Shown: positions 3,212-59,599 of the stretch, piece by piece
Position numbering within the stretch: the first letter of the stretch is position 1
How the letters are laid out: each line of letters begins with the position of its first letter
From: Bacillota bacterium
GTDB lineage: Bacteria > Bacillota > Desulfotomaculia > Desulfotomaculales > JBFMEU01
Length of the DNA stretch: 64,000 bases
Assembly (NCBI GenBank): GCA_040753155.1
Contig: JBFMEU010000003.1
Coordinates: forward strand, 5,045 to 69,044
Reading direction: 5' to 3'
Program-made: the position numbers and the translations under genes
The notes under the pieces: generated by a model
Told to the model about the DNA's origin: nothing
The model's input: the letters and a program-made list of their open reading frames with translations, nothing else
Database searches by the model: none

Positions 3212-5545
3212 ATGGTAAGCTCAAAATATGTAGATTTGCGGATTTTTATGTCGGGAGGAAGAATCGTGTCCAAAACCCCCGGGGGATCTTTAAAATATGA
3301 AGTGCTTGGCTTAGCCATCATGACCCTGGCCGTACTGGGGATGGCCAGCTTATTGTTTGCCTCCGTGGGGGCCTTCGGCAACTTAATTAACCGGTTATTA
3401 CTGGCAGTGGCCGGAGATGGCCGCTTTCTACTGCCACCACTTCTATTTTTATTGGGTCTCAGGCTCTTACGACAGCGGAGCGCTACCAGCCTGCCTGTTC
3501 GCACCTACGGTCTGCTGGTCATATTTTTTAACTTGCTGATCTTCTTACACATGGGCATAACCCTTGAAATGGCCTGGGAAACAGGATTTCAGGGCCAGGG
3601 TGGCGGCATACTGGGGGCCGCCGGCAGCCTGATCTTGCGCCATGCCTTTGGCCAAGTGGGCACTTATATAATTCTAGCCTCCCTGACCATGTTAAGCTTA
3701 CTGCTCCTCACCGGTGTATCCATGGAAGAACTCGCCAGAGGCGCCTGGAGGCGCACTAAAATGACTGCTGCCACTACAGCCAGGAGTCTAACCGATTTTC
3801 TGTTTGAGGAAGTTGAGGACGAGCCTGAAGACAAGGACAAAAAATCCCCGGCTAAAAAAAAGCCCCGGGAGCAGGATACGGCTGGTGGCCGGGACCACCC
3901 GCCTGTTAATACCACCGACGGTGCAAACAAAGCCGACTGCGTCACCAGTACCGGCCAGGAATTGGAGTCCAAATCCCCCGCCGGAGAAATGGTGAGCCCG
4001 GCCATACCCTTTGGTGGCACATCCTTTGTCCTGCCCCCGACGAGCCTGCTGGCCTCCCCTAAACCCAAGGGTTCAGGGCTCCATTCGGAACAGGATATTC
4101 AGGACCGGATCCATGTACTGGAACAAACACTGGAAAATTTCGGTATCAAGGTTAAGGTGCTGGAAGTTTCCATAGGCCCGGCCATAACCAGGTATGAAAT
4201 CCAACCCCCCCCGGGGATCAAGGTCAGCCGGATTGTAGGTCTGGCTGATGATATTGCTCTGGGCATGGCAACTTCAGGTGTTCGCATTGAGGCCCCAATA
4301 CCCGGCAAGGCAGCGGTGGGCATAGAAGTGCCAAACCAATCTATTAACACCGTTCCCTTAAGAGAATTACTTGAGTCGGATGTCTTTATTAATCACCCGT
4401 CCAGACTGACCGTAGCTCTGGGTAAGGACATTGCCGGGACGCCGGTACTGGCTGACCTGGCCCGTATGCCCCACTTACTAGTGGCGGGCGCCACTGGCTC
4501 GGGGAAAAGCGTGTGTGTAAACACAATAATTTGCAGCATTCTATTTAAAGCCACCCCGGATGAAGTAAAATTCCTGATGATCGACCCCAAAATGGTCGAG
4601 CTTACCACTTATAACGGCATTCCCCACCTGGTAAGCCCGGTGGTTACCGATCCTAGAAAGGCTGCCGGGACCCTGCGCTGGGCGGTGCGGGAAATGGAGT
4701 CCCGTTACGAGCTTTTTGCCGCCGCAGGGGTGCGGGACATCACCAGGTATAATAACCTGTGCCTGGAGGAGACTGCCAGGCGGCAAAAGAGTATGCTCCC
4801 CAGAAATTCGGACGCCGCTCAAAGCCTGGCCAGGGCCGAACTTGCAGAGCCTGACCAGGTCAGACCGCTGCCCCTGATTGCTGTAATCATTGACGAACTG
4901 GCCGACTTGATGATGGTTGCGCCGGCGGATGTGGAAGATGCCATTTGCCGCCTGGCGCAAATGGCCAGGGCAGCAGGAATCCACCTGCTGGTAGCTACTC
5001 AGCGCCCGTCTGTGGATGTAATAACCGGGCTCATTAAAGCCAATATACCTTCCCGGATATCCTTTGCCGTGTCAAGCCAAACCGACTCCAGAACAATCAT
5101 TGACATGGGCGGGGCCGAGAAACTTTTAGGCAAAGGGGACATGTTGTTCTTTCCTGTGGGAGCGCCCAAACCACAGCGGGTGCAAGGGGCCTTTCTGTCA
5201 GATAAGGAAGTGGAAACACTGGTGGACTTCCTGAAGGATCAGGCCAGACCAACCTATAATGAAGAGGTGCTTAAGGACACACCACTGGAGGAACAGTGGA
5301 GTGACCAGGAAAACGACGACCTTCTCCCCCAGGCCGCCCTGCTGTTTATTGAAAGTGGCGCCGCCTCCATTTCCATGCTCCAAAGGCGTCTGCACATTGG
5401 CTACTCAAGGGCTGCCAGGCTGGTGGACCTGATGGAAAGAAGGGGCATTGTGGGTGGTTTTGAGGGCAGTAAGCCCCGGGCCGTGCTAATGACCATGGAA
5501 CAATATCAGCAGGCTTTCACCGAGGCTGATAACCGGGCCAGTTAG
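3212..5545 (+). CDS. ftsK: DNA translocase FtsK/SpoIIIE
   Basis: N-terminal TM segments, a proline/charge-rich linker, Walker A GATGSGKS, and a C-terminal gamma (winged-helix) domain MLQRRLHIGYSRAARLVD. The more likely start is GTG at 3266, preceded by GGGAGGA. Confidence 0.95.
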   Translation: MVSSKYVDLRIFMSGGRIVSKTPGGSLKYEVLGLAIMTLAVLGMASLLFASVGAFGNLINRLLLAVAGDGRFLLPPLLFLLGLRLLRQRSATSLPVRTYGLLVIFFNLLIFLHMGITLEMAWETGFQGQGGGILGAAGSLILRHAFGQVGTYIILASLTMLSLLLLTGVSMEELARGAWRRTKMTAATTARSLTDFLFEEVEDEPEDKDKKSPAKKKPREQDTAGGRDHPPVNTTDGANKADCVTSTGQELESKSPAGEMVSPAIPFGGTSFVLPPTSLLASPKPKGSGLHSEQDIQDRIHVLEQTLENFGIKVKVLEVSIGPAITRYEIQPPPGIKVSRIVGLADDIALGMATSGVRIEAPIPGKAAVGIEVPNQSINTVPLRELLESDVFINHPSRLTVALGKDIAGTPVLADLARMPHLLVAGATGSGKSVCVNTIICSILFKATPDEVKFLMIDPKMVELTTYNGIPHLVSPVVTDPRKAAGTLRWAVREMESRYELFAAAGVRDITRYNNLCLEETARRQKSMLPRNSDAAQSLARAELAEPDQVRPLPLIAVIIDELADLMMVAPADVEDAICRLAQMARAAGIHLLVATQRPSVDVITGLIKANIPSRISFAVSSQTDSRTIIDMGGAEKLLGKGDMLFFPVGAPKPQRVQGAFLSDKEVETLVDFLKDQARPTYNEEVLKDTPLEEQWSDQENDDLLPQAALLFIESGAASISMLQRRLHIGYSRAARLVDLMERRGIVGGFEGSKPRAVLMTMEQYQQAFTEADNRAS

Positions 5546-5590
5546 GCATCAGGCGTCAGGTAAAAGAAAAACTCCCCTGCGAGGAGATTC

Positions 5591-5763
5591 TATCTTCGCA
5601 CAGCCTGTAAGACCCCGCCCTCTTAGGTCGGGGTCTTACAGGCTGCAAACTCGAAATAAGTGCGACTAAGGTTTAGCGGTCAGGGGACACACCTCCTTCG
5701 GAGGAATGTCCCCAACGTATGGGTTAAAACCCCACCTGAACCAAGTCTTCTTTATCTTCGCAC
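5591..5763 (+). repeat. Family B structured repeat, copy B1 (with a 37-nt hairpin insert and a restart of the 5' end)
   Basis: Shares its core with 12203-12332 and 15464-15692. It has an extra perfect hairpin AGCCTGTAAGACCCCG/CGGGGTCTTACAGGCT. After the terminal TTTAT the first 8 nt (CTTCGCAC) repeat. Confidence 0.85.
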
Positions 5764-5882
5764 GGGATAAGCGTATACGGGATCTGGCGGAGGAAAACTC
5801 CCGGGACCGGGAGGCGCCAAGTCTGCCGGCCCCGGATATGATCTGGTATGGTCTGGTATGGAGCCACACTGGCAGCAGGGAA

Positions 5883-6140
5883 TCAGATGTCTTCTTCACC
5901 CCGGTCTTTCTCCGACAGCCGGGAAAACATCGCGGCCAGACTTCTTTTTTCTTCCTCGTTGCCTTCTTCCCAGAGATCTTTAAGCAGTCTTTGCTCCCGA
6001 TCGGCAGGATCAAAATTATTGACAAAAAACCGGCCGAACCGGTAGGTCAGATCTTCTATCCGGCTTTCGGAAACACCCACTGACTCAGCGGCATCCACAG
6101 CCTTGCCGAATAATCTTTTCCAGTTGGTCCCCAATTCCAT
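5883..6140 (-). CDS. DUF3243 (YmfJ-like) small protein
   Basis: 85-aa ORF. The pattern NW..L.G....A...G.S...I.DL....G........P....R.LKDLW resembles B. subtilis YmfJ as recalled from memory. Confidence 0.55.
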   Translation of the reverse strand: MELGTNWKRLFGKAVDAAESVGVSESRIEDLTYRFGRFFVNNFDPADREQRLLKDLWEEGNEEEKRSLAAMFSRLSEKDRGEEDI

Positions 6141-7974: not shown

Positions 7975-8353
7975 AAAAGCACGGCCGTAAGCGAGATTCT
8001 GTTTCGGTAGTCATCCATCTAGAAAATCCCGGCTTTCACCGGCATCTCCTCCCCTTTAACGGGGTGCCCCTACCCGCAGCAAAGCTGCCTATTTGGGTTG
8101 CACGCTGGCGGAGTTTACCCTTGCACTCACCGGTCACCCGGTGAAATGGTTTCTGTGGCACTTTATGGCTACTGGAAACTCCCAAGAGCCTCTTTGGCCG
8201 TCGTCAGGTCGCCCTGCCCCGGCTTGCGCCGGGCACCATTTTACACCGGCTTGTAAAGCCGCTGTGCGTGTCTCGACTTTCCTCTGCCTGCCGTTAACCA
8301 GCCCTGCAAAAAGCGCCTGATTCCAGCAAACAGCGACTACCCACCGTACTTTT
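7975..8353 (-). ncRNA. rnpB: RNase P RNA, bacterial type A
   Basis: The reverse complement contains the universal blocks AGAGGAAAGUC (P4 5' strand), GGUAAACUCCGCC, CAAAUAGG and CUAGAUGGAUGACUACCGAAACAGAAUCUCGCUUA. P2 pairs GGUAGUC/GACUACC. P1 pairs AAAAGUACGGU/GCCGUGCUUUU. The ends are approximate to about 5 nt. Confidence 0.9.
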
Positions 8354-11683: not shown

Positions 11684-11758
<75 letters not shown>

Positions 11759-11761
11759 TTA

Positions 11762-11837
11762 TGGTGACCCCTACGGGATTCGAACCCGTGTTACCGCCGT
11801 GAAAGGGCGGTGTCTTAGACCGCTTGACCAAGGGGCC
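11762..11837 (-). tRNA. tRNA-Glu (anticodon TTC), CCA encoded
   Basis: Reverse complement GGCCCCTTGGTCAAGCGGTCTAAGACACCGCCCTTTCACGGCGG...GGGGTCACCA. The anticodon loop is CTTTCAC. Confidence 0.95.
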
Positions 11838-11949
11838 TCTTATTAGAGGTTGGAGATTTGAGATTGGAAGTTGGATTTTTTATTGGAATTCGCCAGGGCG
11901 AATTCCTTCTAATCTAACCTCTAGCTTCCAACTTCAAACTTCCAGTGAG

Positions 11950-12024
11950 TGGTGGGCCCACCAGGATTCGAACCTGGAGCCAGCCGGTTATGAGCCGGAT
12001 GCTCTACCGTTGAGCTATGGGCCC
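11950..12024 (-). tRNA. tRNA with CAT anticodon (elongator Met, or possibly the Ile2/lysidine type), CCA encoded
   Basis: Reverse complement GGGCCCATAGCTCAACGGTAGAGCATCCGGCTCATAACCGGC...TGGGCCCACCA. The anticodon loop is CTCATAA. It lacks the three G-C pairs typical of initiator tRNA. Confidence 0.9.
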
Positions 12025-12028
12025 ATAT

Positions 12029-12103
12029 TGGCTCCTCGAGTAGGATTCGAACCTACAACCTACCGGTTAACAGCCGGTTGCTCTACCGTTGAGCTATCGA
12101 GGA
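12029..12103 (-). tRNA. tRNA-Asn (anticodon GTT), CCA encoded
   Basis: Reverse complement TCCTCGATAGCTCAACGGTAGAGCAACCGGCTGTTAACCGGTAGGTTGTAGGTTCGAATCCTACTCGAGGAGCCA. Confidence 0.95.
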
Positions 12104-12202: not shown

Positions 12203-12332
12203 TTTATCTTCGCACAGCCTGTAAACTCGAAATAAGTGCGACCAAGGTTTAGCGGTCAGGGGACACATCTCCTTCGGAGGAATGTCCCCAACGTATGGGT
12301 TAAAACCCCACCTGAACCTTGGTCTTCTTTAT
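12203..12332 (+). repeat. Family B structured repeat, copy B2 (minimal 130-nt form)
   Basis: Layout is TTTAT-CTTCGCACAGCCTGTAA..GTGCGA..ACCAAGGTT[..GGGGACA-cATCTCC-TTC-GGAGGAa-TGTCCCC..]AACCTTGGT-CTTC-TTTAT, with nested stems visible by eye. Confidence 0.85.
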
Positions 12333-12357
12333 TATAACAGAAATGACTAAATTGAAC

Positions 12358-15463: not shown

Positions 15464-15692
15464 TTTATCTTCGCACAGCCTGTAAGACCCCGCCCTCGCA
15501 TAAGGAAAGGGGACACACCTGCTGAAGCTTGGGTATTTCTCTGGGGACAGGAATGTCCCTAACTAATGGGATTAACAGGCTGTAAACTCGAAATAAGTGC
15601 TACTAAGGTTTAGCGGATAGGGGACACACCTCCTTCGGAGGAATGTCCCCAACGTATGGGTTAAAACCCCACCTGAACCAAGTCTTCTTTAT
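15464..15692 (+). repeat. Family B structured repeat, copy B3 (carries a ~100-nt insert that is itself a degenerate B-core module)
   Basis: Same termini and core as B2. The insert follows CAGCCTGTAA, is closed by AGCCTGT../..ACAGGCT, and contains GGGGACACACCTG...GGAATGTCCC. Confidence 0.85.
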
Positions 15693-15723
15693 CATTGCCA
15701 TTATCTGTAAGCAATAAACCATT

Positions 15724-18185: not shown

Positions 18186-18319
18186 CCCCCGACGCTATAT
18201 TTCGCTATTTTATCTGAAAACTCCTTCAACACAAGCTAAATTATCACCATGTGCTAAGGGGGCAGATTATAATGGACCCATAAAATGAGACACGATTTGA
18301 CAGGGTGAAAGCGACACCT

Positions 18320-18545
18320 ACGTCGAAGTGGTATATAACCTTAAACCGCACAGGTCTGTATCGTAAAGCTAAAGAGCCTACGGAACTGGAGGTTAAGATT
18401 AAGCACCTGATCGACAGAATACACACAAAGCATCCATTTAAAGGAGCCAGGCGCATCAGGGATGACATCAATGCCATGAATTTGGGCTTTAAGGTAAATC
18501 GCAAGCGTATCCAGCGCTATATGAGGGATATGGGCATTCAGGTCT
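18320..18545 (+). pseudogene. IS3-family transposase (OrfB N-terminal) fragment
   Basis: ...EVKIKHLIDRIHTKHPFKGARRIRDDINAMNLGFKVNRKRIQRYMRDMGIQ matches the HTH_21 region of IS3 OrfB. No DDE (rve) domain follows. Confidence 0.7.
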
Positions 18546-18661
18546 TCTGCCCGGGCCCGTTACACGAGGTACCTGTCCCCCTGTCCCTGTCCCCCCCTAG
18601 CTTGTTGTGTTGCGTGTCACAATTGTATATAATAAAGTATATCGACTTTGGAGGTGAAAAA

Positions 18662-18949
18662 ATGAAATTTATAACGATAAGGGATCTAAAATTTAAATCA
18701 CCAGAAGTCTGGCGCCGGTTGGAAGCAGAAAAAGATCTGGTTGTCACGTCCAACGGAAGACCGATTGCCATTTTAACAGGTATAAACGAAAACAACCTGG
18801 AAGAGTCACTGGCGGCTTTACGCCGCAGTCGAGCTGTCTTAGCAGTGAATAAACTCCAGTTGCAGTCGGTAGAAAAGGGTAAGGACAAGTTTTCAATGGA
18901 CGAAATCGAGACGGAAATAGATGAAGTACGCCGGGGCCGTAGTATATGA
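18662..18949 (+). CDS. Phd/YefM-type antitoxin
   Basis: MKFITIRDLKFKSPEVWRRLEAEKDLVVTSNGRPIAILTG. GGAGGTG lies 7 nt upstream of the ATG at 18662. The ORF track fuses it in frame to the IS3 fragment. Confidence 0.8.
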   Translation: MKFITIRDLKFKSPEVWRRLEAEKDLVVTSNGRPIAILTGINENNLEESLAALRRSRAVLAVNKLQLQSVEKGKDKFSMDEIETEIDEVRRGRSI

Positions 18950-19356
18950 AGATAGTGCTCGATACAAATGTTCTGATTTCGGGTCTCTTAAAGCCTTTTA
19001 GTACTTCCGGCTTGATCGTTAGGCAGGTTGCTGAAGGAACGATCAAGATAGTATTTGATTCTCGTATTCTGGCGGAGTATCGGGAAGTATTGAGAAGGGA
19101 AAAATTTGATTTTGACACTGAATTAGTCGATATACTGTTAAACCAGATCGAAACGGAAGGGCTATTAGTTTCAGGAAAACCAATTAAAAATAAGCTTCCC
19201 GACCCAAATGACGGCCCTTTTTTGGAAGTAGCACTTGCTATGGAAAGAATCATTATTGTTACTGGAAATAAAAAACACTTTCCTGAAGTTTGTGGCAAGA
19301 TTATCGTTATGGACCCAACGCAGTTTATTGATTATCTGTCCGAACATTGTGACTAA
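18946..19356 (+). CDS. PIN-domain toxin (VapC-like)
   Basis: MKIVLDTNVLISGLL...PDPNDGPFLEVA...IVTGNKKHF. Its ATGA overlaps the antitoxin stop. Confidence 0.85.
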   Translation: MKIVLDTNVLISGLLKPFSTSGLIVRQVAEGTIKIVFDSRILAEYREVLRREKFDFDTELVDILLNQIETEGLLVSGKPIKNKLPDPNDGPFLEVALAMERIIIVTGNKKHFPEVCGKIIVMDPTQFIDYLSEHCD

Positions 19357-19750: not shown

Positions 19751-19778
19751 ATTCAACTCCTGACTCCTGAGTAGTTAC
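19751..19778 (+). repeat. Family C element, right-terminus fragment (C1)
   Basis: ATTCAACTCCTGACTCCTGAGTAGTTAC matches the right TIR of C2, C4 and C5. It abuts the AT-rich cassette. Confidence 0.75.
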
Positions 19779-25162: not shown

Positions 25163-25368
25163 GTTACTATTCAGGTATTCAGAATTCAGGAGTCAGGAGT
25201 CAGAATGCCCTGAGAATATGCTTCCAGCAATTAGAGAAGTTTTGTTTCGTAAATATCACCGTATCCAAGATCCTTCGTAAGTATCAAGTAATATCAGCAT
25301 TCTTCAACAGAACCTTGGTTTTCTCATTCTGACTTCTGACTTCTGGCTCCTGACTCCTGAGTAGTTAT
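25163..25368 (+). mobile_element. Family C non-autonomous element C2 (internally deleted four-helix-bundle gene), TSD ATTTTTTA
   Basis: Left end is GTTACTATTCAGG..TCAGGAGTCAGGAGTCAGAAT. Right end is ATTCTGACTTCTGAC..CTCCTGAGTAGTTAT. An 8-bp direct repeat sits at 25155-25162 and 25369-25376. On the minus strand the interior reads ...GSVEEC*YYLILTKDLGYGDIYETKLL. Confidence 0.9.
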
Positions 25369-28377: not shown

Positions 28378-28406
28378 CTCTTGAACCTCCTTATTTGGTT
28401 ATAGTA

Positions 28407-28708
28407 TATATTCAGTGAAACCGGTGTTAAGGCACGGCATTATCATCGCTCACTCCAGTGCTCCGCGCCGACAGCACCTCGGCTTGTTTCGGACCGGACT
28501 AGCGACGCTGCAAAGGCGGCGATTGATTTATCTTCGGAAGGTGCCTGCTCTCCTCAAAGCACCTTGTTCTCAAACCCGTCGCCTTAGCAGTCCGCTGGTT
28601 TCGCGCCGCAGTCCGGTTACCCTCACTGCGCCGGGTGCTGTTACCGGCGCTCCGCAAGTCGTTCGCTAACGATAATGCCGTGCCTCCACCTGGTTTGCTG
28701 AATACTTA
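28407..28708 (+). mobile_element. Family D ~300-bp TIR element, copy D1 (inside the glyQS leader)
   Basis: TIRs are TTCAGTGAAACCGGTGTTAAGGCACGGCATTATC / GATAATGCCGTGCCTCCACCTGGTTTGCTGAA, flanked by TA...TA. About 90 percent identical to D2 and D3 by eye. Confidence 0.85.
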
Positions 28709-28736
28709 CTGGTTATTTACCCTGCGCGGCCCAAAC

Positions 28737-28980
28737 GCAAAACAACCCCCCGTCCCGGCAATTGCCAGGGACGGGAGGCATCTCCCGCGGTTCCACCCTG
28801 ATTGACCGTCACGCGGCCCACCTTCATCGGCGCAGGTTTTACTAATTCCGCCGGCAAATCGGCGCAACTTTCCTCCTGCGGCTCAGGAACCCCTTTCGAG
28901 CGGACTTATTTTACCGGCTTGCACCTGGCCCGGCTCTCTGCAAAAACTACCCCGCCTACTATCTCCCTCATCGCCTATAT
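28737..28980 (-). promoter_or_regulatory. T-box riboswitch leader of glyQS (with intrinsic terminator 28737-28778)
   Basis: On the minus strand: stem I start GGCGAUGAGGGAGAUAGUA, GCAGAGAGCC, distal-loop GGUGCAA, T-box sequence AAUCAGGGUGGAACCGCGGGA (28803-28783), and terminator CCUCCCGUCCC-loop-GGGACGGGGGG-UUGUUUU. A candidate Gly specifier lies within caGGAGGAaag. Confidence 0.8.
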
Positions 28981-31230: not shown

Positions 31231-31274
31231 TCTCTGAGCCTGGAGGGATAATGACTGCCGGCACATCGTTTACA

Positions 31275-31406
31275 TTGAACGAGACTTCATTCAGAGTGGG
31301 ATTCAACCCCCTCTGAATGTTAGCCGAGTCCATACTGGACTTAACCGCCCTTTGAAACCCGCCGCCTACAGAGGCGGGGTCTTAGGGTGGATTAGTTCAG
31401 TGGTAA
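31275..31406 (+). repeat. Family A structured repeat, copy A4
   Basis: 132 nt with 4-5 differences from A2. It sits directly against the truncated C3 element. Confidence 0.9.
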
Positions 31407-31470
31407 ATCTTCAAATGTTTTCGCTGGTTTTTTCATTCTGACTCCTGACCCCTGACTCCTGAGTAGTTGC
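31407..31470 (+). repeat. Family C element, right-hand portion (C3), truncated at its junction with A4
   Basis: ATCTTCAAATGTTTTCGCTGGTTTTTTCATTCTGACTCCTGACCCCTGACTCCTGAGTAGTTGC aligns with the right part of C4. Confidence 0.8.
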
Positions 31471-32919: not shown

Positions 32920-32949
32920 CTCCCTATTTAGGGACGGCCCCGCCCTCCA

Positions 32950-33082
32950 TTGAACGAGACTTCATTCAGAGGGGGATTCAACCCCCTCTGAATGTTAGCC
33001 GAGTCCATACTGGACTTAACCGCCCTTTGAAACCCGCCGCCTACAGAGGCGGGGGTCTTAGGGCGGATTAGTTCAGTGATAA
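32950..33082 (+). repeat. Family A structured repeat, copy A5 (in the mgtE 5' UTR region)
   Basis: 133 nt, essentially identical to A2. It ends 30 nt upstream of the mgtE ATG. Confidence 0.9.
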
Positions 33083-33263
33083 ATGGCGCCGCCGGACCGC
33101 CCCTGTGAGTTATACAATTATACGCGCGACTACTTGGGCCCGCGTCCACAACACCACCTCCATTCGACAATACGGTGATATTTACAATCACCCTAACAAA
33201 TTTACCAATAAACCACCCTTTGTGTCAAGTTGTCAAGGAAACGGGCACATCAGGACCCGGTGT

Positions 33264-34798: not shown

Positions 34799-34833
34799 AT
34801 CCCCCTTGCTAGTGCCCCCAAAGCCGCTGTATA

Positions 34834-35130
34834 TATTCAGTGAAACCGGTGTTAAGGCACGGCGTTATCACCGCTCACTCCAGTGCTCCGCGCCGGCAGC
34901 GCCCCGGCTTGTTTCGGACCGGACTAGCGGCGCTGCAAAGGCGGCGATAGATTTGTAATGGAAGGCGCCTGCTCTCATCAAAGCACCTTGTTCTCAAACC
35001 CGTCGCCTTAGTAGTCCGCTGGTTTCGCGCCGCAGTCCGGTTACCCTCACTGCGCCGGGTGCTGTTACCGGCGCTCCGCAAGTCGTTCGCTAACGATAAC
35101 GCCGTGCCTCCACCTGGTTTACTGAATACT
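34834..35130 (+). mobile_element. Family D TIR element, copy D2 (overlaps the 3' end of dgkA)
   Basis: Same TIRs as D1 with TA flanks. The last codons of dgkA and its TAA stop lie in the element end. Confidence 0.85.
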
Positions 35131-35502
35131 TACAAGTCGCTGCAGGTGCGGGCCAAAGATCAGCGCCCCGGCCACCACAGCATGCAGAGCGGCCAGCAGT
35201 ACGGCCCCGGCAGCTATATCCTTGGCCCGCCCGGCCAGGGGGTTTGGTCCCGGAGAAACCAGGTCCACCACTGTTTCCACGGCGGTATTCAGCGCCTCGG
35301 CCACCAGGACCAGAAATATGGCCAGGAGTAAAAAAAGCCACTCCTCCCTGCTCAGTTCCAGCAAGCCGGCCAGCGCCAGCACAGCAGCCGTTGCCAGCAG
35401 GTGAATTTTCATGTTGCGCTGGGTAGTCACCGTCCTGGCCAGGCCGGATCCCGCCCGGTAAAAAGCCTTCCAAAAGTTTCCCCGCCACTCCACGCCCGGC
35501 AT
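35119..35502 (-). CDS. dgkA: diacylglycerol/undecaprenol kinase
   Basis: 127 aa, three TM helices, motif EALNTAVE. In the conserved ybeY-dgkA-cdd order. Confidence 0.9.
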   Translation of the reverse strand: MPGVEWRGNFWKAFYRAGSGLARTVTTQRNMKIHLLATAAVLALAGLLELSREEWLFLLLAIFLVLVAEALNTAVETVVDLVSPGPNPLAGRAKDIAAGAVLLAALHAVVAGALIFGPHLQRLVSIQ

Positions 35503-46198: not shown

Positions 46199-46377
46199 GT
46201 TACTATTCAGGTATTCAGAATGGACCGTATAGCTCATACTTCGGAAACGCCATAGATAAACGATAAATCGCAAGTACGAACAGGTGCGCCTTCTGCCATA
46301 CCAGTAATCTTCAAACGCTTTCGCTGGTTTTCTCATTCTGACTCCTGACTTCTGACTCCTGACTCCTGAGTAGTTAC
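46199..46377 (+). mobile_element. Family C non-autonomous element C4 (retains the N-terminal part of the four-helix-bundle gene), TSD ATCTTTTT
   Basis: An 8-bp direct repeat sits at 46191-46198 and 46378-46385. On the minus strand the interior reads ATGAGAAAACCAGCGAAAGCGTTTGAAGA(-1 nt)..LLVWQKAHLFVLAIYRLSMAFPKYELYG. Confidence 0.9.
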
Positions 46378-48548: not shown

Positions 48549-48659
48549 GTTACTATTCAGGTATTCAGAATTCAGGATTCAGAATGGACCTGTTTTCGCT
48601 GGTTTTCTCATTCTGACTTCTGACTCCTGACTTCTGACTCCTGACTTCTGAGTAGTTAC
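48549..48659 (+). mobile_element. Family C miniature element C5 (111 bp), TSD GTTCAAAA
   Basis: An 8-bp direct repeat sits at 48541-48548 and 48660-48667. Both TIRs are present, with almost no interior. Confidence 0.9.
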
Positions 48660-48804
48660 GTTCAAAACACCATTAGGAGGGCAGCCTCCGCATCTGGTGC
48701 GGCACGGCGCCCTCCTGCCGTGTTCTGGATTAATCGGTACTCAACTGTCTTGCCTGACCTCTATTTATTTTATTAAGGTTTGGCTATTCTGTCACCTATT
48801 TTTT

Positions 48805-49102
48805 ATTATTCAGTGGAACCAGTGTTAAGGCACAGCGTTATCACCGCTCACTCCAGTGCTCCGCGCCGACAACACCACGGCTTGTTTCGGACCGGACTAG
48901 CGGCGCTGCAAAGGCGGTGATAGATTTATACTGGAAGGCGCCTGCTCTCCTCAAAACACCTTGTTCTCAAACCCGTCGCCTTACTAGTCCGCTGGTTTCG
49001 CGCCGCAGTCCGGTTACCCTCACTGCGCCGGGTGCTGTTACCGGCGCTCCGCAAGTCGTTCGCTAACGATAACGCCGTGCCTCCACCTGGTTTACTGAAT
49101 GT
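48805..49102 (+). mobile_element. Family D TIR element, copy D3 (5 nt downstream of the dnaK stop)
   Basis: Aligns end to end with D1 and D2. Flanks are TA / TG. Confidence 0.85.
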
Positions 49103-49107
49103 TTACC

Positions 49108-50970
49108 CTATTTTTTATTCCCTTCATCCTTGACCTCGTAGTCGGCATCCACTACGTTGTCCTGCCGGGTGCCCTGGCCTTGATCCTGGCCATGTTCGTG
49201 GCTGCAGGTTCCGGCGCCGCAGCCGCCCCCCTGCTGCCCCGGCTGCTGGTAAATGACTGCCGAGAACTCATGCAGCAGCCTGGTGGCGGCCTCCAGTTTG
49301 GCCTTGATCATTTCGATGTCGTTGCCCTTAAGGGCCTCTTTAAGTTCATCCACCGCCTGCTGGACCTTTTGAGCCAGGGCCGGGTCAACCTTATCCTTGT
49401 TCTCGCCAAGGGTTTTCTCCGCCTGGTACACCATGCTGTCAGCCTGGTTGCGGACCTCCACCTCTTCCTTGCGCCTTTTGTCGGCCTCGGCATTTTTTTC
49501 GGCTTCCTTCACCATTTTGTCAATTTCATCGTCTTTAAGGTTGGAGCTGCCGCTTATGGTGATGCTTTGCTCCTTGCCGGTGCCCAGGTCCTTAGCCGAG
49601 ACATTGACAATGCCGTTAACGTCAATGTCAAATTTCACTTCGATTTGCGGAATACCCCGGGGCGCCGGGGCAATACCGCTCAACTGAAACCGGCCCAGGG
49701 TCTTGTTGTCCGCCGCCATGGGCCGCTCACCCTGCAGCACGTGAATGTCCACCGTGGTCTGGCCGTCCGCCGCCGTTGAAAAGATCTGGCTCTTGGATGT
49801 GGGGATGGTGGTATTGCGCTCAATGAGCACGGTATTAACACCGCCCAGGGTTTCAATGCCCAGGGAAAGGGGCGTTACGTCCAGCAGCAGGACATCCTTA
49901 ACCTCGCCGGCCAGCACGCCGGCCTGAATGGCCGCGCCCAGAGCAACACACTCATCCGGGTTAATCCCCTTATGAGGCTCTTTGCCCAGATACTTTTTAA
50001 TTGCCTCGTAAACCGCCGGGATCCTGGTGGAGCCCCCCACCAGCAGAATCCGGTCAATATCCTTGGGCTCAAGTCCGGCGTCGGCCATGGCCTGCTTGGT
50101 GGGCCCCATGGTTTTATCCACCAGATCCGAGGTCAGCTCATCAAATTTGGCCCGGGTCAGGTTAATATCCAGGTGCTTGGGCCCCTCGGCGTCCGCCGTA
50201 ATGAAGGGCAGGTTGATGTTGGTGGTATGCACGCCGCTCAGCTCGATTTTGGCCTTTTCCGCCGCTTCTTTCAGCCGCTGCATGGCCATGCGGTCCTTGC
50301 TCAGGTCAATGCCGGCATCTTTTTTAAACTCCGCCACCAGGTGATTAATCACCCGCTGGTCAAAATCGTCCCCACCCAGGCGGTTGTTGCCGCTGGTGGC
50401 CTTAACCTCAAACACGCCGTCACCCAGCTCCAGGATGGAAACGTCGAAGGTGCCGCCCCCCAGATCGAACACCAGGATGGTCTGGTCGTTGGCTTTGTCC
50501 AGGCCGTAGGCCAGAGCCGCGGCTGTGGGCTCATTGATAATCCGCAGTACCTCCAGGCCGGCAATCCGCCCGGCGTCCTTGGTGGCCTGACGCTGGGAGT
50601 CGGTGAAGTAGGCGGGTACGGTAATAACCGCTTTTTCGACCCTGGCCCCCAGGTAGGCCTCGGCGTCGGCCTTCATTTTTTGCAGGATCATGGCCGAGAT
50701 TTCCTGGGGCGTATAGTCTTTGCCGTCTATGTTAACCTTGTGGTCCGTGCCCATGTAGCGTTTGATCGACTGCACGGTACGGTCGGGGTTGCTGACCGCC
50801 TGCCGCTTGGCCACCTGGCCCACCAGGCGCTCCCCGGTTTTGGAGAAGCCGACCACCGAGGGCGTGGTGCGCCCCCCCTCGGCATTGGGAATAACCACTG
50901 CCTCACCGCCCTCCATTACCGCCACACAGGAGTTGGTTGTTCCCAGGTCAATTCCTATAACTTTAGACAC
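49108..50970 (-). CDS. dnaK: molecular chaperone DnaK
   Basis: (M)[17 protein letters not shown]... The likely GTG start at 50970 is 7 nt after GGAGGG. The ORF-track TTG at 50985 overlaps the RBS. Confidence 0.97.
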
Positions 50971-56191: not shown

Positions 56192-56390
56192 GTAACTACT
56201 CAGGTATTCAGAATTCAGGAGTCAGGAGTCAGAATACCCCGAAACTATGCTTCCAGCAATTTACTAACCTCTTGCAAGAGAAGTTTTGTTTCGTAAGTAT
56301 CACCATATCCAAGATCCTTCGTAAGTATCAAGTAATATCGGCATTCTTCAACAGAACCTTGTGCAATGTTTAAAAAACGCGAGTAGTTAC
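56192..56390 (+). mobile_element. Family C non-autonomous element C6 (retains the C-terminal ~45 codons of the four-helix-bundle gene), TSD CATACCTT
   Basis: An 8-bp direct repeat sits at 56184-56191 and 56391-56398. Termini are GTAACTACTCAGG / CGAGTAGTTAC. On the minus strand the interior reads RFLNIAQGSVEECRYYLILTKDLGYGDTYETKLLLQEVSKLLEA*. Confidence 0.9.
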
Positions 56391-56437
56391 CATACCTTTG
56401 CATTATAACACTTTGGGCAGGCCTCCGAAAAGGTATA

Positions 56438-56481
56438 TATTCAGTGAAACCGGTGTTAAGGCACGGCGTTATCACCGCTCA
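56438..56481 (+). repeat. Family D left-end fragment (D4)
   Basis: TATTCAGTGAAACCGGTGTTAAGGCACGGCGTTATCACCGCTCA, after which homology ends. Confidence 0.8.
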
Positions 56482-58515: not shown

Positions 58516-58571
58516 CTGAATTACGCTGGTTTTCTCATTCTGACTCCTGACTTCTGACTCCTGACTCCTGA
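58516..58571 (+). repeat. Family C right-end remnant (C7) fused to the 3' end of holA
   Basis: CTGAATTACGCTGGTTTTCTCATTCTGACTCCTGACTTCTGACTCCTGACTCCTGAG. The terminal GTAGTTAC is missing. Confidence 0.8.
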
Positions 58572-59599
58572 GATTGGCAGAGCTTTAAAACCAGCATTTC
58601 CATGGCCGGGTAGAAGTCCAGGCGTCCGGTCTTGGTCTTGACATCAATTTCCCCCAGGCTGTCCAGTAACTCCAAAAGCTGGGCAGTTGTGAAGTTGCGC
58701 CCCTGCTCCTGAACCTTTTTGGCCACAAAGGGGTGCGCCCCCAGCCGGGCGGCCAGTTCGGGCCCGGAACAGCCCTCCCGCCGCAGCTCCCCGGCCAGTA
58801 AAATAAGCCGGAACTGCCTGACCACCATAGCCAGGATGTAGTGGGGCTGCACCCGGCATAAAAGTAAATCCCTGATCCCCTGCAACGCTCTGGCGCACTG
58901 CTTCTCCCCGATGGCGTCAACCACCGCAAAGATACTGTCCTCCAGCTTTTCCGGCACCAGGTCCCTGACCTCCCGGGGCGTGATGGTTGTACCGGGAGCT
59001 GTATAGTTAATCAACTTCTCCATTTCCTGATACAAGCTGATCAGGCTTTTTCCGCGCCGGCGCAGCATTTCTTCCGAGGCCTCCCGCTGGATGCCCCGGC
59101 CCTCCTGCCGGGCCCGCTGCTCCAGCCAGCGGTAGATCTCCGTTGGCTTTAACAGACTGAACTCCACCACCCGGCCCTTAGCGGCCACCAATTTGTAAAT
59201 TTTCCGGCGCTTGTCCACGGCTTCCCCGGCATCGAAAACCAGGCAGGTTTCTGCCGCCGGCTGCTCCAAATAGCTCCGCAGCAAGGCCTCCCCGGGCCTT
59301 TCCCCGGACTCCCCGGCCCCGGCCCTGGCAGGGCGAAACAGCCCGGCCTGGCGGACAATGACCAGGCGCCTGGCGGCCAGCAGCGGCGGAAGGCCGGCAG
59401 CAGCCACAATGGCGTCCGGGCCGGTGCCTTCCCCGTCCAGGAGGTCCAGATTAAATTCCGCTGTGGCCGGTTCCAGCAAGATCTCCTTAAAACGGGCCAG
59501 GGCCTGTTCCCGCAGGTACACCTCAGGGCCGTAAAAGAGATACACGGGGGCAATATTCCCCCGCTTTAAGCTGTCCAGTAAATCAAGATAGTACTTCAA
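58535..59599 (-). CDS. holA: DNA polymerase III delta subunit
   Basis: 354 aa. Starts PVYLFYGPEVYL and is in the conserved position. The last 13 codons (QSQESGVRSQESE) are encoded by repeat C7. Confidence 0.9.
   Translation of the reverse strand: MKYYLDLLDSLKRGNIAPVYLFYGPEVYLREQALARFKEILLEPATAEFNLDLLDGEGTGPDAIVAAAGLPPLLAARRLVIVRQAGLFRPARAGAGESGERPGEALLRSYLEQPAAETCLVFDAGEAVDKRRKIYKLVAAKGRVVEFSLLKPTEIYRWLEQRARQEGRGIQREASEEMLRRRGKSLISLYQEMEKLINYTAPGTTITPREVRDLVPEKLEDSIFAVVDAIGEKQCARALQGIRDLLLCRVQPHYILAMVVRQFRLILLAGELRREGCSGPELAARLGAHPFVAKKVQEQGRNFTTAQLLELLDSLGEIDVKTKTGRLDFYPAMEMLVLKLCQSQESGVRSQESE

Follow-up and report, generated by a model that had tools for sequence, protein, structure and literature searches.

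What are the ~300-bp non-coding repeats scattered among the housekeeping operons of an uncultured Bacillota bacterium, and what moves them? We analysed a stretch of 64,000 nucleotides (nt) of this bacterium (positions 5,045 to 69,044 of contig JBFMEU010000003.1, assembly GCA_040753155.1; hereafter the window), which carries several copies of such a repeat, here named family D. A first-pass annotation, made from the letters alone, had seen in it a non-coding element resembling a miniature inverted-repeat transposable element (MITE), with terminal inverted repeats (TIRs), moved by a TA-duplicating transposase of the IS630/Tc1-mariner type. Here, we show that the description was right, since empty sites reveal that the element is mobile, and that the mechanism was not, since the same sites show a duplication of 8 bp. 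Family D is a new MITE family of an ordinary and well-known kind, and it has been recently active. We consider it most probable, at roughly 80%, that it is moved in trans by a transposase of the ISBst12 group of the IS66 family of insertion sequences (IS), encoded elsewhere in the genome.

The window holds three full copies and one left-end fragment of family D, all on the plus strand. D1 (306 bp, 28404..28709) lies between the glyQS T-box leader and the ribosome-binding site and start codon (28377) of glyQ. D2 (305 bp, 34829..35133) lies in the last codons of dgkA, which is on the minus strand, and D3 (304 bp, 48803..49106) between the dnaK stop codon and dnaJ. The number and strand of the full copies are as first described. 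The fragment D4, just downstream of the spoIIP stop codon, had been given as 44 nt at 56438-56481; it is a solo left end of 49 nt (56433..56481), 100% identical to D2. The full copies are indeed very alike, their pairwise identity (93-95%) being slightly higher than the 90 percent or so estimated by eye. A repeat finder recovers the family, and the window has 4 and 3 occurrences of the two end motifs, against 0 expected by chance.

Alignment of the copies with their flanks and with further copies places the limits of the element at 5'-GTATATATTCAGTG...CTGAATACTTAC-3', with a single variable base at the left end (5'-GTATA(T/C)ATTCAGTG). The boundaries had been drawn too narrowly: conservation runs 7 nt past TTCAG...CTGAA on each side (GTATATA-TTCAG and CTGAA-TACTTAC), and it is only in this trivial sense that the copies are part of a longer conserved unit. 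Outside GTATATA and TACTTAC the flanks of the copies are unrelated to one another. The TA that seemed to flank the element is inside it, and the true flanks are 8-bp direct repeats. The outermost 12 nt are GTATATATTCAG on the left and, once reverse-complemented, GTAAGTATTCAG on the right, so that the inverted repeat reaches the corrected ends. The TIRs are real, imperfect and about 42 bp long, with ~36-37 identities over the first 42-44 aligned columns and three small indels. Those of D1 occupy ~42 nt each on the plus strand: the left one (28404..28445) starts with GTATATATTCAGTG and is identical to the reverse complement of the right end at 36/45 positions, and the reverse complement of the right one (28668..28709) starts with GTAAGTATTCAGCA. 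Between the TIRs the element is GC-rich and almost fully self-complementary. This complementarity is stronger than had been described, the whole element forming one long hairpin. As first stated, there is no credible open reading frame (ORF); we found none common to the copies. With sizes of 304-306 bp, below the ~600 bp usual for MITEs, family D has the properties of a MITE in each respect that could be tested.

The mechanism can be read from sites where the element is missing. When D2 and one copy of its direct repeat are removed in silico, dgkA is predicted to encode a protein of 126 aa ending in ...LQRLWGH, and exactly this protein is in the protein database (P0001, 100% identity and coverage). 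It is encoded on contigs L012 (JGI 3300040748) and L013 (Logan SRR22746113), which share 99.3-99.7% identity with the window and read ...CCCCCA AAGCCGCT GCAGGTG... at the D2 site, with a single 8-mer and no element. In the window D2 is preceded by this same sequence, AAGCCGCT (34821..34828), and followed by AAGTCGCT (35134..35141), one mismatch apart (7/8). A look-up with lepA gave a third contig, L021, from the same JGI sample as L012, which differs from the window by 4 mismatches in 13,042 bp (99.97% identity). D3 is missing from it, and CCTATTTTTTATT occurs once between dnaK and dnaJ. D3 itself is flanked by two identical copies (8/8) of CCTATTTT, at 48795..48802 and 49107..49114, the right one including the dnaK stop codon. 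D1 is flanked by TGGTTATA (28396..28403) and TGGTTATT (28710..28717), which match at 7/8 positions; this insertion is also found in L010 and L012. Near-identical strains thus differ in two of the three full copies. Family D is mobile, because in strains with 99.3-99.97% identity to the window D2 and D3 are missing and their targets are single, and its target duplication is 8 bp, not TA. Its insertions are very recent, because strains 4 substitutions apart in 13 kb differ in their element content. The targets are mostly AT-rich and intergenic. Other look-ups were less rewarding: a locus search based on RecO returned only a 41%-identical metagenome-assembled genome (MAG) of Dehalococcoidia, useless for empty sites, and a protein look-up of SpoIIP and DnaK, as delimited here, no matching record.

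Outside the window, the left-end pattern matches nine contigs of one metagenome, Ga0048257, with at least 10 left ends. It has no match in the representative genome collection, in which the species is not included, and family D has none among plasmids, phages and viral contigs. The metagenome contigs contain short derivatives of 117-122 nt, in which just both ends are kept and which have their own 8-bp duplications at other loci (CCCTAAAA in L001, TATTTTGC in L008). They also contain chimeras with the centre of family D swapped for another repeat (L003, duplication AATCTTTT). In a further chimera, on contig L012, family D is combined with a second repeat family, E, in the order D/E/D (duplication GAAGCATG). 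Since these deletion derivatives and chimeras have duplications of their own, the interior of family D is dispensable for its propagation, and the ends are what is retained.

Which transposition system has such ends? The inverted repeats of the IS66 family begin with GTAAGCG, and its elements make 8-bp direct repeats (PMC11946415). Within this family, ISDge4 of Deinococcus geothermalis, a single-ORF element of the ISBst12 group, has the TIRs GTGACTACTCAGCA / GTAACTGCTCAGCA, 8-bp direct repeats and a copy-and-paste behaviour (PMC12898284). Plasmid pHTA426 of Geobacillus kaustophilus has a copy annotated as 'IS66-like element ISGka4 family transposase', with ends GTATCTATTCAGCCC / GTAACTATTCAGCCC and target-site duplication (TSD) GACGAGTT. 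A tblastn search with its transposase found relatives on 191 plasmids, of which five were fetched, three of them with clear element boundaries. The IS66-family element of B. thuringiensis has GTAACTACTCAGCTT at both ends and TSD TCAAATTG/TCAAATTA, that of Chlorohelix has ends GTAACAATTCAGCC / GTAACAGTTCAGAC and TSD AATTATTT, and that of Acaryochloris has GTTACTGCCCAGGC at both ends and TSD CTTCATTC. The terminus consensus of the ISBst12-group elements examined is GTnACnnnTCAG, with a start in GTAA... Of their 12 positions, the D termini have 10-11 in common with the Geobacillus and B. thuringiensis elements, and they are similar to those of ISDge4 (Geobacillus GTAACTATTCAG / GTATCTATTCAG and ISDge4 GTGACTACTCAG / GTAACTGCTCAG, against GTAAGTATTCAG / GTATATATTCAG in D). 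Even the GTAT/GTAA asymmetry between left and right is common to D and the Geobacillus element. The search for an IS with matching inverted repeats, proposed in the first-pass annotation, leads to the ISBst12 group, and family D has both of the hallmarks of this group that can be tested, 8-bp repeats and GTAA-type termini. These replace the TA and mariner mechanism. A string search of the literature with the termini gave a match in the ISDge4 paper only, and we found no published description of an ISBst12-related MITE in the literature searched. Family D also differs from ISBst12-group elements, as these are 1.4-1.6 kb long and encode a DDE transposase of ~450-485 aa, whereas D has 305 bp and no ORF, longer inverted repeats (~42 bp) and an interior without relation to the transposase gene. 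The enzyme acting in trans on D would be a DDE transposase with its gene elsewhere in the genome, most probably a single-ORF one of the ISBst12 group: it would recognise the termini and insert the element at a staggered 8-bp cut, the repair of which would produce the 8-bp target duplication.

Family E, the second repeat family of the window, has termini of the form GT(T/A)ACTA(T/C)TCAGG, with GTWACTAYTCAGG ends. It has four complete copies in the window, all on the plus strand: 25163..25368 (termini GTTACTATTCAGG...GAGTAGTTAT, duplication ATTTTTTA), 46199..46377 (duplication ATCTTTTT), 48549..48659 (between D3 and dnaJ, duplication GTTCAAAA) and 56192..56390 (between D4 and lepA, with the remnant of a gene for a four-helix-bundle protein, duplication CATACCTT). 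The 8-bp duplication is perfect in 4/4. Partial ends occur at 19778, 31425-31470, 58527-58572 and 62563, and further copies outside the window in L012 (15685-15884 and 16991-17390) and L014 (1401-1852). An L012 copy with duplication AAAAGATG lies between recO and a DUF4342 gene, where the window is empty. Family E has sub-terminal (TCAGGAG)n heptamer repeats, and its terminus matches that of the B. thuringiensis IS66-family element at 12/12 positions. Since D and E have in common a 12-nt terminus (GTWAnTAyTCAG) and the length of their duplication, they are probably moved by one enzyme. As the D/E/D chimeras show, these families recombine or nest. Confirmation of the partner would mean that D and E extend the known reach of the poorly characterised ISBst12 transposase group.

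Full-length family E, as found in L014 and L012, is a ~450-bp cassette with a gene for a 121-aa four-helix-bundle / 23S_rRNA_IVP protein (PF05635). The start and stop codons of this gene are within the repeat regions, and the copies of the window have internal deletions. At E <= 1e-10 the protein has more than 7,900 homologues, of which the best 120 listed are 74-95% identical and come from many metagenomes. This suggests that four-helix-bundle genes travel as mobile insertion cassettes (MICs) of the IS66/ISBst12 type. MICs, a concept that comes from IS231 and MIC231, are IS ends around a passenger gene. Family E resembles them in having ISBst12-type ends, an 8-bp duplication and a PF05635 gene instead of a transposase, whereas family D lacks a passenger gene. 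At L012 16980-17000 the orthologous D1 copy has a full-length E cassette inserted in its terminal ATATAC, immediately upstream of the position that glyQ occupies in the window, a further strain polymorphism. In Phosphitispora fastidiosa (GCA_019008365.1, L033 5920-6310), a flagellar operon contains an inserted homologue of the four-helix-bundle gene. Ahead of this gene lie ~400 nt of 7-nt tandem repeats, (NAGGAGN)n, which look like the sub-terminal repeats of family E in expanded form.

The insertions fall within a minus-strand gene cluster that is conserved in Bacillota (spoIIP, lepA, hrcA, grpE, dnaK, dnaJ ... phoH, yqfF, ybeY, dgkA, cdd, era, recO, glyQ, glyS). The G+C content of the window is 54.9%, and its GlyQ clusters at 90% with MAGs of Pelotomaculum, Peptococcaceae and Desulfotomaculaceae. 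For the glyQS T-box leader, on the minus strand at 28764-28980, the score is 76 bits (E = 5.8e-17), below the Rfam gathering score of 93. D1 and its duplication put 314 bp between this leader and glyQ, and regulation of glyQS must either read through the D1 hairpin or be bypassed. D2 exchanges the last three residues of DgkA for four others, the stop codon in use (35119-35121) being inside the element. The dnaK|dnaJ interval holds D3 and a copy of family E, and the spoIIP|lepA interval D4 and another. A relative with the same gene order (~70% nucleotide identity, same GlyQ 90% cluster) lacks both families in the syntenic 20 kb and has no element between T-box and glyQ. For annotation this means that the 3' end of dgkA is element-encoded and that glyQS is parted from its T-box. 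Insertions of D hit essential housekeeping operons of an uncultured, syntroph-like and Pelotomaculum-like Bacillota MAG, and they are useful strain markers. The D and E repeats probably also break assemblies: contigs of this lineage end at repeats, and those carrying DnaJ do so 57 nt ahead of the gene.

Copies of family D are not oriented at random. We could orient ten of them (4 in the window and 6 in metagenome contigs, with gene strands assigned by Pfam), and in 10/10 copies, all flanked by co-directional genes, the orientation is the same, with transcription entering at the GTAAG end (two-sided binomial p ~0.002). The opposite strand of D1 and D2 carries weak hairpin-plus-T-run motifs, so the simplest explanation is selection against polar insertions. 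An insertion bias linked to the direction of replication is possible too. Within operons the copies would be co-transcribed as a long hairpin. A match to an outward promoter (TTAACA-16-TATACT) spans the left end of D1. It relies on flanking sequence and does not recur at D2 or D3, and we therefore rejected it as a family feature.

Either strand of the element folds into a single long hairpin, with -143 and -154 kcal/mol (z = -8.1 and -9.5). Rfam 15 contains no family that matches it, neither at the gathering threshold nor at E up to 10, where the lone match was a chance miRNA fragment outside the element. The covariation check that had been suggested for this fold gave nothing convincing among the three copies. 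Of the predicted pairs that vary, 1 is compensatory (G-C to A-T in D1, at columns 34/271), 10 have one-sided changes that preserve a wobble and 8 are broken. These numbers give no support to a selected RNA structure: there is no evidence of selection on it, and substitutions between copies look neutral.

Several observations weigh against attributing family D to an ISBst12-group enzyme, or fit it poorly. The assignment is based on the similarity of 12-14 terminal nt and on the length of the duplication; beyond these nt the inverted repeat is unlike any known IS, and no similarity to a transposase gene is seen in the interior. The first-pass annotation had seen no transposase in the window, and our searches agree: tblastn with the Geobacillus ISBst12-type transposase against the window and related contigs (~198 kb) found none (best E = 0.07), and in Pfam scans of the non-housekeeping ORFs of the window the only transposase-type trace was an IS3-like HTH_21 remnant. 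Since no transposase is present in these ~198 kb, we infer the partner: which transposase it is, that it exists in this genome, and that it works by copy-and-paste, as is reported for ISDge4. The orientation bias in 10/10 copies is not predicted by simple random transposition and needs selection or a strand-specific insertion bias. Many left-end-only fragments, several of them in the metagenome contigs, lack an explanation. D3 is anomalous in two respects. Its duplication reaches 13 nt (CCTATTTTTTATT, 48795-48807 and 49107-49119) instead of 8 bp, and its left terminus is degenerate (TTATTA for GTATATA), with TTATT, identical to the flank, in place of the canonical GTATAT. The empty allele of L021 holds the 13-mer once. 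D3 is either an aberrant insertion or one whose terminus was later converted from the other repeat copy. Finally, the empty sites could in principle be precise excisions through slippage between the 8-bp repeats, yet the 8-bp duplication stands whether they are excisions or pre-insertion states.

One might thus ask if another enzyme moves the element, either from a different family that duplicates 8 bp (IS256, ISL3, IS6, IS1595 or similar) or of an undescribed kind, the likeness to ISBst12 being a coincidence. Several IS families do make 8-bp duplications, and the missing transposase and the short match of 12-14 terminal nt leave some room for this idea. We consider it unlikely: five ISBst12-group elements, retrieved independently and from four phyla, and ISDge4 share GT(A/T/G)AC(T/A)(A/G)(T/C)(T/C)CAG, which D matches at 10-11/12 positions and E at up to 12/12, whereas the remaining IS families with 8-bp duplications have, as far as is known, GG- or GA-type ends. 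The TA-duplicating transposase of the IS630/Tc1-mariner type had more to recommend it at first sight, as TA adjoins the TTCAG...CTGAA core in D1 and D2 and the size and inverted repeats of D are typical of the MITEs such enzymes move. But this TA belongs to the 7-nt blocks, GTATATA and TACTTAC, kept in all copies at unrelated loci. What is missing from the empty sites of L012, L013 and L021 extends from GTATATA to TACTTAC plus 8 bp and is not a TA-bounded element, and 8-bp repeats are found at thirteen D and E insertions. Empty sites without a TA duplication were the very outcome that had been named in advance as refuting this mechanism, and we now give it next to no credence. The same is true of an element akin to REP/BIME, or a palindromic one derived from IS200/IS605 (PATE), moved as single-stranded DNA by a Y1 (HUH) transposase. 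Such an origin would fit the palindromic nature of D, and the strict orientation bias could reflect strand-specific insertion coupled to replication. Yet Y1-transposase elements (IS200/IS605, REP/RAYT) have no target duplications and no TIRs, and D has 8-bp duplications and 42-bp TIRs.

The remaining alternative concerns function rather than enzymes: D might be a structured non-coding RNA or cis-regulatory module maintained by the host, e.g. an RNase III processing or stability hairpin, for which mobility is incidental or ancestral. The extreme stability of the fold (z = -8 to -9.5), the common orientation of 10/10 copies relative to transcription, their position at gene boundaries within operons and the one concerted change that keeps a pair (columns 34/271 in D1) all go in this direction. 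Yet copies that are present or absent among strains 99.3-99.97% identical are not required, and the related species at ~70% nucleotide identity does without an element upstream of glyQ. The counts of 8 broken, 10 one-sided and 1 compensatory pairs are those expected without structural selection, nothing in Rfam matches even at E = 10, and the apical two-thirds of the hairpin are deleted or replaced in derivatives that propagate. Both strands fold equally well, as in a DNA palindrome. We therefore hold a host-maintained module to be very improbable, and retain a MITE moved in trans, most probably by an ISBst12-group transposase. A bolder speculation joins the two themes: D hairpins would act as RNase III processing or stability modules that rewire operons, and the same ISBst12-type machinery would move cassettes with the four-helix-bundle gene of 23S-rRNA intervening sequences (IVS). 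We doubt it. If true, a near-perfect RNA duplex of ~300 nt within essential operons (T-box|glyQS, dnaK|dnaJ, dgkA|cdd) would alter their expression, and the long-unexplained spread of 23S-rRNA-IVS four-helix-bundle genes, perhaps of rRNA intervening sequences themselves, would be tied to trans-mobilisation by the IS66 family.

Among known systems, the Correia elements of Neisseria, which are ~100-155 bp long and duplicate TA, offer a parallel. Like them, family D is small, non-coding, multi-copy, bounded by TIRs, intergenic or intra-operonic, polymorphic between strains and predicted to be co-transcribed as a hairpin. Unlike them, it has ~305 bp, an 8-bp duplication and IS66-type ends.

Some other features of the window and of the related contigs deserve mention. 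The D/E/D chimera of L012 (3980-4260) borders a segment (L012 1-4000) encoding a 1,774-aa DUF4011/AAA_11/AAA_12 helicase, which is absent from the window at the corresponding position (~41240) and may be a strain-specific island. In L008 an IS110-type transposase gene (4740-5975, GIDVHK motif) lies ~300 nt from the short D copy. The window is unusually rich in small repeats, with two more intergenic families of ~131-145 nt whose copies are 82-100% identical. The first (737-881 on the minus strand, 1897-2030, 31273-31408 and 32948-33084) has a hairpin CATTCAGAGGGGG...CCCCCTCTGAATG; the second is found at 5631-5761, 12207-12337 and 15568-15698. An ORF at 18305-18949 (plus strand), with an inverted repeat at 18636-18670 / 19102-19136, has both an IS3-type HTH_21 and a Phd/YefM antitoxin domain and is probably an IS3 remnant fused to or adjoining a toxin-antitoxin module. 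Finally, a class B RNase P RNA (7983-8348) and a cluster of four tRNAs (11686-12103), both on the minus strand, fit the Bacillota origin of the window.

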